A DNA stretch of 20,490 bases from Candidatus Fraserbacteria bacterium (GTDB lineage: Bacteria > Bipolaricaulota > Bipolaricaulia > RBG-16-55-9). The notes beneath the pieces are model-generated. The model was given only the letters and a program-made list of their open reading frames with translations, was not told where the DNA came from and made no database searches. Position 1 is the first letter of the stretch; every line of letters begins with the position of its first letter. Position numbers and translations under genes: made by a program. The stretch covers positions 1-20,490 of the forward strand of contig JBBIPG010000039.1 in NCBI GenBank assembly GCA_037442925.1, given 5' to 3'. Shown here piece by piece: positions 15,392 through 19,413 of this stretch.

Positions 15392-15922
15392 TCAGATCTT
15401 GCGCAGCCGCCGCATGCCTGCGATGAACTCGCGCACCACGCCCGTGAAGCGCTCCCAACAGAGAATCAAGGCGAGCACGATCCAGACGAGATAGGCGTAT
15501 GCTGCCCAGGACGACTCCTGATATGCGATGATCAAAGGAAGAGCCACCAGAGGGAAGGCAAACATCTCTGTCACCGACTTGGAGCCGGATGACCAGAGGA
15601 TGAAGATCGCGGCAATGGTCGTGTAGACCAAGGCCAAAGGCAGAGAGACGAAGCCGGAGAAGGTGAGATACACAAATCCAGAGAAGACCATGACCATGTC
15701 CAGCAGAAAGTCGTGCTCGCCTAGCCATGTGTTCTCCGCTGCTCCGGGCAACTCGCTTCGGGCGCGCCGCGCCAAGCGCCCGTCGAAGATGTCCGTGGTC
15801 CAGCCGAGAATCGTGAGGAGAACAACCCAGGGCAAGGCTGCTTTGCCTCGTAAGCTCAGGGCCACAATGACGATGGCGATGAGCGCCCGCGAAGCTGTGA
15901 ACCAATCGGCCAATCTCTTCAT
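15392..15922 (-). CDS. CDP-alcohol phosphatidyltransferase family membrane protein
   Basis: ADWFTASR (NxxTxxR-like) and the TDIFDGRLARR...G..D...D motif, with about 5-6 hydrophobic helices. Confidence 0.78.
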   Translation of the reverse strand: MKRLADWFTASRALIAIVIVALSLRGKAALPWVVLLTILGWTTDIFDGRLARRARSELPGAAENTWLGEHDFLLDMVMVFSGFVYLTFSGFVSLPLALVYTTIAAIFILWSSGSKSVTEMFAFPLVALPLIIAYQESSWAAYAYLVWIVLALILCWERFTGVVREFIAGMRRLRKI

Positions 15923-15956: not shown

Positions 15957-15985
15957 ATAATAGCCTCAAGCGCAGGGAGAGTCAA
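15957..15985 (-). promoter_or_regulatory. Sigma70 promoter for the phosphatidyltransferase-HTH-DUF2007 operon
   Basis: TTGACT (15985-15980, overlapping the upstream stop codon), 17-nt spacer, TATTAT (15962-15957). Confidence 0.65.
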
Positions 15986-18900
15986 CGCCCGAAGGAGAGC
16001 GTTTGATCCGTGGGAGAGTACTCGATCTCGGCCGTGGGAAAGGCGTTGATGCGTACTTGAACCCAGAGCTGGTTCTGATTGCCATACAAACCAATTTGCC
16101 AGCAGGCTTGGCAGAACTTCTTGATAATCCCAAATCGGGATGCCGTAAGACGCCCCAAGCGAAGATCGTACTCACCTCCCAACGCCAACTCCCAACCTCC
16201 AAGAGCCCAACTGGATTCGAGGTTCACACGTCGCAGCTCCAGTCGATTCACATCAAACCGAAACCCTGCACGCAGCGGTTGCCCCAAATCCAGCTTAGCA
16301 ATCACATCCTCGTAGCGGGCGCTCACAAAGTTATAGCCGCCATTCACGTTCAGCTGCACTCCCCAAACACTCAGGCTCGCTTGTGCCGTAGTGCGCCGGA
16401 GGCGCTGCTTGTTTAGATCGTACTCCACGCCCGACGAGATCTGAGCTATGCCCACGCGATACGCCACGCCGAAGTTGACAGGAGCGAAGCTCCCCTGTGT
16501 CCAATCATATCCCGAATTCAACTGAATACTCCCCCGCGACAGAAAACTCCCCATCCCTCGGAATGTGACCCGATCGGTTAGCGTCAGTTGATCGAATTGA
16601 AAGGGACTCTGGCCTCGTACAGCGCGATAAAGATAGTCCAGCGTTATAGTAAACCCGCGCACCGGCGTGAAGATCCATTGCGACAGAAAATCCCACGAGT
16701 CACGGCGATTGGGTTCGTAGAGTGAAATACGATAACCGGAATTCGCCGTCAGTTGCACCCCCGGCACGACCATCAACGTTTCAAGCCCTACTTGAACTCG
16801 GCCATCGAAACGCGAACTCTCGCGCGTCGTATGATCTACCGCTTCCTCGTGATAGCGCCCCCAGTCGATTCCTCCCGAGTAACGGAACGGGAGATCCCCC
16901 AGACGCACCGGCCTCTGCTGCAGCGAAAGCTCAGGCAGCCGCTCCAGCGTCAGATAGCTCAACTGCTCCAGCGTTTCGGGATCGGGTTCCGCGGGTAGAA
17001 GATTCTGATCTCGACTGAAGCCCACTTGCCAGGTCCAATCTCCTGCGATTCCCAAGAGCAGCGCCTGCGAGAGCAGCCGTGTGGCTTCGCGAGCGAGAAG
17101 TCCCGTGCGCAACCCTGAGGATAAACTAAGGGTTATCGCGTCGCTCAACTGCAGACGATCTGACCAATCCAGGGCAAGCGCTTCTTCTTCCCCCACCAAC
17201 CGATAGAACGAGAAACGACCCCCGCTGGATGAGGGCAGAACTTTGTAGTTCAGATCCAGTCCACTGCCCACTTCGCCATAACGGGTGTAGTAGTCGAGCA
17301 GCAAGAATCCAAAATTCTCTGCATCGACGAAGATGGGAACACGCCACTTGGCAAACCACCCTCGTGCGGCATCATTCCCGATCTCCGGCAAGAAGGGATA
17401 CTTCTGCTGAACATCGGTCAAGGGAGCCAAGTACGCCGGAGCCCAGAAGACAGGCTGTCCCAAGGCGCGCAGCGTGATATTGAAGGCCACCAGCACCTCG
17501 TCAGGGCGGATGAGAAGCCTTCCCGCACGAATCGAGTACGAGGCTTGAGGGATGGTCTCTTCGCACGTGCAGGTGGTAAAATCCCCGTTCAAGACATCCA
17601 CAAGGCTCACTTCATTCTCTTTGTCAAATGTGAAACGAGCCTCCTCACCCTGATACCGCAATCGATGCGTCTCCCCCCGAGAGTTGACAAAATCTGTGGC
17701 TCCCATAAAGCGCTCGACAAAGGCATCTTGAGCACGCCATTGGCTAGGAGCTTCCGGGTCTTCCATCAGACGCAATCGCAGTCTATCCGCTTGCGTCGTC
17801 TGCTTTTGTGCCTCCTGCTCCAGAACGACTTGCCCTGAAGCTTCGACTTCCCATGTCGACTCATGGGTGTTCTGCAGTGACACACTCTGCGCGGACAGTC
17901 GGCCTCCCGTGAACTTCACGGAGGCAGACTGGACGAGGGTGATCTCGTGCGGGCTGACTCGCGTTCCTTCTTGCCTGAAAACCGCCTGGAGTTCCTGAGC
18001 ATCTCCCGATAGTTCACGATAGACGAACTGGGCCCCTTCGGCTTCGACTTTCCAGCGGTTGTCCTCGATGCGCCGCAGTCGTAGCTCGTCCGCTTCGATT
18101 GTGACATCTTGATATTGCGCGCGCACATGACCCTGCGCGATGATAGTTTTCCATGCTTCTGCTACCGTGACGGCATCGGCGGAGATCTCAATGGGGACAG
18201 GTTCCGTCATCTGCTGGGCCGTGGCATCCGTGATGATTCCTAATGGCAAAAGTGAAGCCAGCACGAGGGGTAGAAGACGTTTCGCACGATCCAGAAGATC
18301 AATCCGTCCGAGACGGTTGGCCTTTAAGAAGAGCAAAAGACCCATCAGCCCAAAGAGGAGGTTGGGCAACCAGGCTCCCCAGGCCGGAGGGAGATCCCCG
18401 CGATTGCCCAGGATCTCCGCCGTCCAGAAGAGTAGGCCCTGATAGAGAAGCACGAGGAGCACACTCAGGATCACACCCAGCGCGCGGCCACGTGGCCCGA
18501 TAAGCAGACTGAGAGGTGCCCCAAAGAGCGCAAAGACAAAAGACGCTAGGGGAATGGCGATCTTCAAATGATAATCCACGATTAGACTTTCCGCCGGTCG
18601 GCCGATCTTCCGAAATGCTTCAATGCGTTCCGATAGCTCTCCCAGGCTCATCTCGCTCGCGCTGCGCTGTTCGAAGACCATCTTCTGGATCTGCTGACCT
18701 ACTTGAATGGTCATCGTGTCGAACTGATTGCGGTAGCGTAGGTTGCCCTGATCGTCGAAGGCATGGATCACACCGTTTTGAAGCTGCCACGCGTCGTCTT
18801 GCCAGATTGCGCTCTGTGCGGTGATCACCTTTGGGAACGTCCCGCCGTCTTCGAGGTAGATCCTGCCACTCAGATCGTAGATGAGCACATCTTCTAGGAT

Positions 18901-19413
18901 GTTCTCTTCTGCATCATAATGGCGCACGTAAAAGAAGCGATCGTCCGCGCCCTTGAAGAAGGCGTTATCGCGGATCTGCGGCGCGGAGCGACTTCCATAG
19001 AACTGCTGCAAATAAAGATTTAGGAACTGGCGATTTCCCCAGGGAGCCAGCCGATCGCTGATCAGAAGATCGACACCACTCAAGATGAGCCCAACAACCA
19101 GTAAGGGCATGACGATGCGACGCAGTGAGATCCCAGCGGCTTGCAGTGCGATGATCTCCCGATCGTGCCCCAGCCTTCCTAAGGCGAGGAAGATCGCAAA
19201 GAGCGTGGCCACCGGCAGCGCCAGCACCAGAAGATACGGGAGTTGGTAGAGGAGCATGAGCACCAGCGCTCCTGGAGGAATCACCCGATCCACCAATAAT
19301 TGTGAAAACCGTCCCATCAAGAAGAGCAGGAAGAAGATGAGAAAACCCACAGTGGCCAACAGGAAAGGGATCGCCATTTCTCTAAGCAAATAGCGATCGA
19401 CGATCTTGAGCAT
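15982..19413 (-). CDS. Fusion of LptF/LptG-family permease (aa ~1-365) with LptD/OstA-like jellyroll plus beta-barrel (aa ~400-1143)
   Basis: The N-part has LptF/G motifs IVDRYLLRE, LGRLGHDREIIALQAAGISL, KIAIPLASFVFALFGAPL and GAWLPNLLF. The C-part has OstA-like PIEISAD...AQGHV...IEADEL, the LptD hallmark FTTC...YSIRA...GQPVFWAP, amphipathic beta-strands, and C-terminal CQACW. Confidence 0.85.
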   Translation of the reverse strand: MLKIVDRYLLREMAIPFLLATVGFLIFFLLFLMGRFSQLLVDRVIPPGALVLMLLYQLPYLLVLALPVATLFAIFLALGRLGHDREIIALQAAGISLRRIVMPLLVVGLILSGVDLLISDRLAPWGNRQFLNLYLQQFYGSRSAPQIRDNAFFKGADDRFFYVRHYDAEENILEDVLIYDLSGRIYLEDGGTFPKVITAQSAIWQDDAWQLQNGVIHAFDDQGNLRYRNQFDTMTIQVGQQIQKMVFEQRSASEMSLGELSERIEAFRKIGRPAESLIVDYHLKIAIPLASFVFALFGAPLSLLIGPRGRALGVILSVLLVLLYQGLLFWTAEILGNRGDLPPAWGAWLPNLLFGLMGLLLFLKANRLGRIDLLDRAKRLLPLVLASLLPLGIITDATAQQMTEPVPIEISADAVTVAEAWKTIIAQGHVRAQYQDVTIEADELRLRRIEDNRWKVEAEGAQFVYRELSGDAQELQAVFRQEGTRVSPHEITLVQSASVKFTGGRLSAQSVSLQNTHESTWEVEASGQVVLEQEAQKQTTQADRLRLRLMEDPEAPSQWRAQDAFVERFMGATDFVNSRGETHRLRYQGEEARFTFDKENEVSLVDVLNGDFTTCTCEETIPQASYSIRAGRLLIRPDEVLVAFNITLRALGQPVFWAPAYLAPLTDVQQKYPFLPEIGNDAARGWFAKWRVPIFVDAENFGFLLLDYYTRYGEVGSGLDLNYKVLPSSSGGRFSFYRLVGEEEALALDWSDRLQLSDAITLSLSSGLRTGLLAREATRLLSQALLLGIAGDWTWQVGFSRDQNLLPAEPDPETLEQLSYLTLERLPELSLQQRPVRLGDLPFRYSGGIDWGRYHEEAVDHTTRESSRFDGRVQVGLETLMVVPGVQLTANSGYRISLYEPNRRDSWDFLSQWIFTPVRGFTITLDYLYRAVRGQSPFQFDQLTLTDRVTFRGMGSFLSRGSIQLNSGYDWTQGSFAPVNFGVAYRVGIAQISSGVEYDLNKQRLRRTTAQASLSVWGVQLNVNGGYNFVSARYEDVIAKLDLGQPLRAGFRFDVNRLELRRVNLESSWALGGWELALGGEYDLRLGRLTASRFGIIKKFCQACWQIGLYGNQNQLWVQVRINAFPTAEIEYSPTDQTLSFGR

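Follow-up and report, generated by a model that had tools for sequence, protein, structure and literature searches.

The stretch of DNA considered here, termed the window, comprises 20,490 nucleotides of contig JBBIPG010000039.1 from a Candidatus Fraserbacteria bacterium (Bipolaricaulota). On its minus strand, at positions 15982 to 19413, lies an open reading frame (ORF) in which an lptF/G gene, for the inner membrane permease of lipopolysaccharide (LPS) transport (Lpt), is fused to an lptD-type gene, for the outer membrane translocon. The encoded protein, designated P0001, has 1143 residues and a mass of about 129 kDa, and consists of one frame without interruption that comprises two domains and a conserved junction. 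The fusion and the signal-peptide-like joint between its halves are the subject of this report.

The fusion gene is real and no assembly error. One search returned 56 further homologues of 1022 to 1200 residues at 30-99% identity, several of them named by their sources as Candidatus Bipolaricaulia or Acetothermia. Among 61 Bipolaricaulota genomes, including the source genome (94% complete), 56 have an LptF/G match and five do not. The junction is read through in 49 of the 61 (46 in frames of at least 775 residues, three in frames ended by contig ends past the junction), only six carry the two genes separately (five of family f10, and genome G035), and one further fragment is not classifiable. 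A contig from a second study (run X4, depth 2.6) covers positions 18162-18360 over the junction with zero differences; no contig crossing the junction was found in runs X2 and X3, and run X1 may itself be where the window's DNA comes from. The long homologues, the read-through and the independent contig argue against an artefact, that is, an assembly or frameshift error joining two adjacent genes. Such an error could appeal to the separate genes of the six related genomes, but two of the genomes that read through the junction are single-contig assemblies and long frames recur in 74 of 81 Thermotogota genomes, and its likelihood is practically nil. An earlier account of the window drawn from its letters (the sequence-only reading) had described the same uninterrupted frame.

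The N-terminal half is an LptF/G permease domain (residues 7-363; positions 18325 to 19395, minus strand), as had also been proposed. It matches Pfam PF03739 (E 3.6e-89) over the curated cut-off (299.7 versus 27.9 bits) and across profile positions 1-352 of 353, and the matches of the whole of P0001 to the Protein Data Bank (PDB), which include LptF and LptG, cover the permease only (18/18). By family, the domain is predicted to form six transmembrane (TM) helices and a periplasmic jellyroll. The LptF and LptG models fit about equally, both below their cut-offs (184.7 of 230 and 176.8 of 240 bits, respectively), and the permease is of a single LptF/G type that is not assignable to LptF or LptG of the heterodimer. 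Among the 56 genomes with a match, 52 have one copy of lptF/G; the exceptions are G048 with two unfused copies, G013 with one gene spread over two contigs, and two genomes with a sub-threshold second match. The homodimeric permease suggested earlier, on the premise that a second lptF/G is lacking, is plausible because of this single copy per genome.

The C-terminal half begins with an LptA/LptD-N-type jellyroll region (residues 409-617; 17563 to 18189, minus strand) that ends in a Thr-Thr-Cys-x-Cys motif, followed by a predicted LptD-type β-barrel (residues 618-1143; 15985 to 17562, minus strand) with a Cys pair, C1101/C1104, near its end. The LptD_N/OstA model (PF03968) matches over its cut-off at residues 409-509 (E 2e-6) and is found in 15 of 43 C-terminal parts of the family. 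When a profile of these 43 parts was compared with the PDB, all eight matches at E ≤ 1 were to LptD and to no other protein, the best being 8H1R (E 1.5e-4) and the remaining seven weak (E 0.04-0.24); the alignment covers the Thr-x-Cys stretch at the end of the jellyroll and the Cys-bearing C-terminal strands. Neighbours in the Atlas by language-model features, which count as one source of evidence, are LptD/OstA clusters (0.92-0.97). Among the 56 aligned sequences, none lacks C615, C617 or C1104, and C1101 is kept in all but one (55). In LptD, disulfides join these two Cys-bearing regions. The last 530 residues of P0001 match no Pfam model, the LptD barrel model PF04453 included, but the latter is narrow and misses five of seven control diderms that have LptF/G. 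After residue 402 there is no TM helix and hydrophobicity alternates. A crude score, which fires in helices too, marks 33 such segments between residues 661 and 1143; an estimate of strand number from it, to be set against the 26 strands of the LptD fold, was dropped. The C-terminal part is thus likely an LptD-like outer membrane pore with a predicted barrel, and the OstA jellyroll and LptD-type half of the sequence-only reading agree with the Pfam and profile matches. The jellyroll region ranges from ~120 to 365 residues among relatives, a variation that would be expected if it sets the envelope span in LptA's stead.

Between the halves lies a joint that the sequence-only reading had overlooked: a seventh hydrophobic segment followed by a signal-peptidase-like site. 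After TM6 the order is a basic cytoplasmic linker (residues 364-379; 18277 to 18324), which is net positive in 56 of 56 sequences and would correspond to the n-region of a signal peptide; the hydrophobic segment (residues 380-393; 18235 to 18276), a putative h-region; a signal peptidase I site, predicted by pattern, of A397-x-A399 and then Q400 (18214 to 18234); and the first jellyroll strand at residue 409, all on the minus strand. The same anatomy of basic linker, hydrophobic core, small-residue site and first jellyroll strand is seen in all three lineages in which the fusion occurs, Bipolaricaulota, Thermotogota and Firmicutes. Ala occupies column 399 in 51 and Gln column 400 in 40 of 56 aligned sequences. 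Within TM1-6 the mean pairwise identity lies at 0.39-0.71; it drops to 0.25 across the hydrophobic segment and to 0.16 over residues 394-398, and then reaches 0.83 at A399 and 0.57 at Q400, a peak that gap placement by the aligner may have sharpened.

Motif counts cover the 18 residues that follow the hydrophobic core, which is present in 173 junctions (70 Bipolaricaulota, 12 Firmicutes and 91 Thermotogota; lineages were set by name where given, otherwise by search origin and tree, and partial P0063 as well as P0059 were excluded). Small-x-Ala followed by Q/E/A/D/S occurs in 52 of 70 Bipolaricaulota junctions versus 31% when shuffled, with none of 500 shuffles reaching 52/70, and in 9 of 12 Firmicute junctions versus 33% (1/500 shuffles). 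After the in-to-out helices TM1, TM3 and TM5 of the same Bipolaricaulota proteins the counts for Small-x-Ala are 0/67, 21/69 and 2/70, respectively. Ala-Gln is found in 41/70 Bipolaricaulota junctions and in 48/171 N-terminal signal candidates of the source genome, versus 29/495 internal helices; similarly, small-Phe-small is found in 51/91 Thermotogota junctions and in 14/35 signal candidates from 400 kb of Athalassotoga, versus 15/139 internal helices. Each lineage's junction therefore bears a motif enriched in that lineage's own signal peptides. The Ala-Gln count after N-terminal hydrophobic segments of the source proteome also stands above the 14% of shuffled sequences, an enrichment that resembles the Q-rule of Bacteroidetes (PMC5837995).

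P0001 is likely a precursor, since the joining segment is predicted to be LptD's own signal peptide. Cleavage after A399 by signal peptidase I would yield an inner membrane permease of 45 kDa and an LptD-like outer membrane translocon of 84 kDa, a reading to which we give a probability of roughly 0.78. The Sec machinery would insert the six helices, leaving the end in the cytoplasm as LptF/G topology suggests; the seventh segment would then re-open export, the 744-residue tail would be threaded into the periplasm, and signal peptidase would make the cut, a step backed by the motif statistics and by peptides from Thermotoga. Family knowledge and gene presence suggest that the barrel, once free, would be folded by BamA into the outer membrane and that disulfides would link the two Cys pairs, and the single copy suggests that two permease halves would pair with two LptB and with LptC. 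Because no LptA was found, LptC would dock on LptD's own jellyroll. The cargo, the weakest step, would be a glycolipid or glycerophospholipid and not LPS. The proposal that both ends of the Lpt bridge are encoded in one polypeptide stands insofar as one gene encodes both; a single mature chain joining the two membranes is not favoured, as the junction looks cleavable and the LptD half is the sole source of the listed Thermotoga peptides.

The natural splits also speak for a cut. They fall in the linker, and the hydrophobic leader stays on LptD: in family f10, lptF/G ends within the linker and lptD follows directly with its own hydrophobic leader, with both genes visible at four loci. The free-standing proteins P0102 and P0084 open on the same pattern, a leader that closes on Ala and then Gln ahead of a strand. 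From the predicted cut to the first strand there are only 2-9 residues in P0001 and its Thermotoga maritima counterpart. Given the dimensions of LptF and LptC, a tether of 2-9 residues is too short for an anchored LptD beyond them.

The T. maritima counterpart has been described as a ‘pABC permease’ (G4FGC1, Tmari_1743), a fusion of LptF/G, LptA and LptD domains (Sexton et al. 2023, PMC10160955). P0343, named by its source as T. maritima MSB8, fits G4FGC1 in mass (122,157) and in 27 of 27 peptide coordinates. G4FGC1 gave no spectra in either inner membrane (IM) sample, and the toga samples yielded 38 and 77; 41 of 41 peptide rows listed for it in the published table start at residue 411 or later. 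Among detectable peptides, defined as fully tryptic, of 8-20 residues and of moderate hydrophobicity, none of nine from the permease half is listed as compared to 22 of 37 from the LptD half (Fisher p 0.0012; 0.0007-0.003 over four settings). These toga samples did contain 14 further inner membrane permeases (dataset 2), and this detectability of permease peptides strengthens the contrast between the halves of G4FGC1. All 14 permease-named rows are zero in the IM samples, which in itself questions the purity of the published fractionation.

A number of points weigh against cleavage. The IM and toga fractions are impure and the permease half is seen in no sample, so that its location is unproven. 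Of the counted peptides of G4FGC1, the table gives only 16 of 25 and 25 of 37, with 167 of ~278 and 266 of ~388 covered residues, and unlisted permease-half peptides may exist; neighbouring proteins are thinned likewise, to about two thirds of their counted peptides. Since the published search was tryptic, with both peptide ends tryptic in each of the 41 rows, it could not have reported a new N-terminus; no peptide with one is among the listed rows, and no cleavage was observed. Clipping during preparation is possible, and the proteomics come from Thermotoga and not from the source organism. As regards the motifs, Small-x-Ala is not enriched in Thermotogota junctions (12/91 versus 18% shuffled), unlike the Athalassotoga signal candidates, of which 14 of 35 carry the Ala-site motif. 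The stricter motif also exceeds shuffles after TM3 (30%) and TM4 (43%), and the loose (-3,-1) rule does not discriminate, as it fits 94% of junctions versus 91% of TM2 and 97% of TM4. The patterns were hand-set after the sequences had been seen, the homologues are non-independent, and the ends of the TM helices were judged by eye. The signal candidates were picked with a heuristic of our own and have uncut anchors among them. An unsupervised motif search for the cleavage site settled on the border of the hydrophobic region and was abandoned. Finally, the seventh segment equals TM6 in hydrophobicity (best 19-mer 1.88 versus 1.84, lower in only 33 of 70) and could remain as a membrane anchor; hydrophobicity does not separate junction from true helix and was rejected as a discriminator.

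Two alternatives bear on the same observations. In the first, the chain stays whole, with seven helices in the inner membrane and the barrel in the outer membrane, as drawn in 2023 for T. maritima. The seventh segment is hydrophobic enough for an anchor, the linker before it is conserved (0.53), a published figure legend calls G4FGC1 envelope-spanning, and a cut has not been seen directly; but such a chain sits poorly with the absence of permease-half peptides from the T. maritima list, a small-residue site that is conserved and lineage-typical, the very short tether, the separate proteins encoded in six genomes, and the two barrels per pump that a homodimeric permease would bring. An uncut chain is accordingly held to be improbable. 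In the second, the halves would be made separately, with translation of LptD beginning inside the linker, and the uninterrupted frame would reflect nothing but stop loss. This would account for LptD-only peptides too, and an in-frame ATG, GTG or TTG is present in the linker in 26 of 42 fused loci; against it, a Shine-Dalgarno-like site precedes such a start in only one of the 42, no start codon occurs in the window gene from residue 361 to residue 383, and the permease would still be made with a tail and would need cutting. Internal initiation is very improbable, and a precursor cut by signal peptidase is preferred to both.

The fusion is widespread. In Thermotogota, 80 of 81 genomes have LptF/G, and the 74 noted above carry it in a frame of 900 or more residues. 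Among 149 best-match proteins (top matches of an exhaustive search and of two earlier searches), 49 were classed as LptF/G with a long tail, of which P0059 is not such a fusion, 50 as tandem permeases, 37 as single permeases and 13 as other. Named carriers of the fusion are Thermotogota, Halanaerobiales and other Bacillota (diderm Firmicutes). The Halanaerobiales protein P0082 aligns to the C-terminal profile over 484 columns (99.8%), whereas for T. maritima the jellyroll alone aligns (hhalign 95.9%) and the barrel sequences do not. Kosmotoga-type fusions (P0109, P0121, P0127, P0142 and P0177) are ~1450 residues long, ~350 more than those of Thermotoga, and the extra part of P0109 has no Pfam match.

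In a quick, midpoint-rooted tree of 100 permease domains, with support only from the Shimodaira-Hasegawa-like approximate likelihood ratio test (SH-aLRT), Bipolaricaulota (98) form one group with Thermotogota (100) at a support of 99. Family f10 is placed within this group next to fused proteins (100), so that its separate genes probably go back to a secondary fission. Firmicute fusions form two groups intermixed with single permeases, and G035 falls outside. The simplest reading of the tree is that the genes were fused once before Bipolaricaulota and Thermotogota diverged, and in separate events in Firmicutes; the ancestral fusion most likely arose by stop loss between adjacent lptF/G and lptD genes. 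G035 is also the sole relative with LpxC, and its unfused LptF/G, outside the phylum clade, is accompanied by a separate LptD of native type; with contamination at 5%, it represents either true retention of LPS or a mixed bin.

The remainder of the Lpt machinery is reduced. In the source genome lptC and lptB are adjacent on contig C46, two signal peptidases I are present, and a BamA-like Omp85 gene is ended by a contig end, with two weaker Omp85 matches elsewhere. No separate LptA-type gene was found in this genome, nor LpxC, LpxB or KdtA, and there is no LptE over the cut-off, although at 94% completeness divergent forms could escape. Across the 61 genomes, LptB is over cut-off in 50, LptC in 39, Omp85 in 59 and LpxC in one (G035, unfused). 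Hao et al. likewise found no LPS genes in Ran1 (PMC6092417), and strain J31, the first Bipolaricaulota isolate, has a toga-like sheath (bioRxiv 10.1101/2025.11.21.689855). As regards cargo genes, this is not an LPS transport system in the strict sense, as no lipid A-Kdo (3-deoxy-D-manno-octulosonic acid) genes were found in the host; the sequence-only reading had anticipated lipid export in an atypical diderm, which fits a host group without detectable LPS genes.

At positions 6517-10523 of C46 a CTP synthase-like gene, lptC and lptB stand in a row, followed by an lgt-like gene on the opposite strand, the CTP synthase-like and lgt-like labels being our own reading of the sequence. The canonical cluster order is pyrG-kds-lptC-lptA-lptB, which the C46 order recalls, minus the Kdo genes and lptA. 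The N-terminus of this LptC has a lipobox-like Cys. In families f9 and f10 Pfam LptC matches are lacking (0/8 and 0/8 genomes), also in two genomes that are single contigs and whose jellyroll is the shortest (~123 residues); these families may have a divergent LptC or a still smaller bridge. Two genomes of genus g18, G037 and G046 (93% and 90% complete), have no LptF/G or LptB over the cut-off and no LptC was found in them, while Omp85 is kept; loss of Lpt is possible there.

Directly downstream of the fusion, at 15392 to 15922 on the minus strand, is a gene of the CDP-alcohol phosphatidyltransferase family (PF01066, E 4.8e-5). Of the 42 loci with sufficient flanking sequence, 12 have a homologue at this place, in the two distant families f1 and f9, which is possibly a hint to the cargo lipid; a clustering of neighbour genes was abandoned when it was swamped by shadow frames. 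A different cargo is conceivable with the precursor cut all the same, namely surface lipoproteins, which the machine would move in the manner of the Borrelia LptD homologue. No LPS genes were found, the Borrelia case provides a precedent in an LPS-free diderm (10.1101/2022.12.21.521298), and the lgt-like gene lies beside lptC-lptB; on the other hand, the same fusion occurs in diderm Firmicutes, among which Halanaerobiales are described as LPS producers (PMC5007114), and the gene that follows it in the 12 loci belongs to a phospholipid-synthesis family. A lipoprotein cargo is thus rather unlikely, if less so than an uncut chain.

P0001, which would function in the manner of Lpt, is a member of the Thermotoga pABC-permease fusion type. 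As in G4FGC1, LptF/G, jellyroll and barrel follow in the same order in one single-copy gene and the host is LPS-free with a toga; the jellyrolls are homologous and the permease domains group, as noted above. The sequence-only reading had called the architecture one not known to it as characterised; it is, however, already in print. The two accounts differ in that G4FGC1 is drawn as one envelope-spanning protein (PMC10160955), whereas P0001 is proposed to be a cut precursor, and in that P0001 has two Cys pairs whereas close Thermotoga relatives have single Cys residues. The main text of PMC10160955 contains neither ‘cleav’ nor ‘signal peptide’, and it lists G4FGC1 among barrels with a Sec signal, with no position given. 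In the literature searched, whose scope left out most subscription papers and the SI Appendix of PMC10160955, the fusion appears only in that paper, with no statement of cleavage or of a Bipolaricaulota fusion; the accessible parts of PMC13721041, PMC13067283, PMC6092417 and the J31 preprint do not mention the fusion. The cleavage reading was thus not found in the literature searched.

The canonical LptB2FGC-LptA-LptDE system of E. coli and Pseudomonas shares with P0001 and its genome the LptF/G fold family, LptB, LptC and the jellyroll and Cys positions of LptD. It differs in having two lptF/G genes, where here one is found fused to lptD, and separate LptA, LptE and lipid A/Kdo genes, none of which were found. 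Acetonema longum has a single LptF/G, read as a homodimer, a divergent LptD and no LptE, but its genes are separate, LptA is present and LPS is made (PMC13018214). Signal peptidase I is known to cut a polytopic membrane protein and to free a large outer domain in the case of LtaS and SpsB of Staphylococcus aureus (PMC12260438); there, however, the cut inactivates one enzyme, whereas the cut proposed for P0001 would free a second functional protein destined for another membrane.

In its widest form, which we favour with less confidence than the cut itself, the proposal is that a cleaved polyprotein yields a six-helix inner membrane transporter subunit and an outer membrane barrel, that it was fixed in two whole deep-branching phyla and arose again in Firmicutes, that a minimal LptB-LptF/G-LptC-LptD bridge without LptA or LptE supplies a non-LPS lipid in LPS-free toga phyla, and that the published envelope-spanning model of Thermotoga is wrong; on balance this whole is somewhat more probable than its negation. 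If true, it would correct the published model of outer membrane supply in Thermotoga-like bacteria and extend it to Bipolaricaulota, and a precursor cut into an inner and an outer membrane protein would couple their synthesis one to one. It would also explain why surveys reported LptD to be missing from atypical diderms (PMC5007114, PMC8871954), as it would be hidden behind a permease annotation. The cargo of Lpt in LPS-free cells is a question that can be addressed now that, besides cultured T. maritima, a first isolate of Bipolaricaulota is available.

Some further features were noted in the window and the source genome. At 198-2912 on the plus strand the window encodes a 904-residue protein with SurA N-terminal, TPR and DUF3105 domains, a possible periplasmic chaperone. 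Between 19500 and 20490 the G+C content falls to 48%, and a 215-residue N4/N6 methyltransferase frame ends early in its Pfam model (positions 1-154 of 221), which suggests a broken, acquired restriction-modification gene. Elsewhere in the source genome, two secreted proteins of ~930 residues (contig C9, 27926-30751, and contig C1, 53710-56487) have a weak C-terminal Omp85 match and an N-terminal part that, in our reading of the sequence, is peptidase-like.

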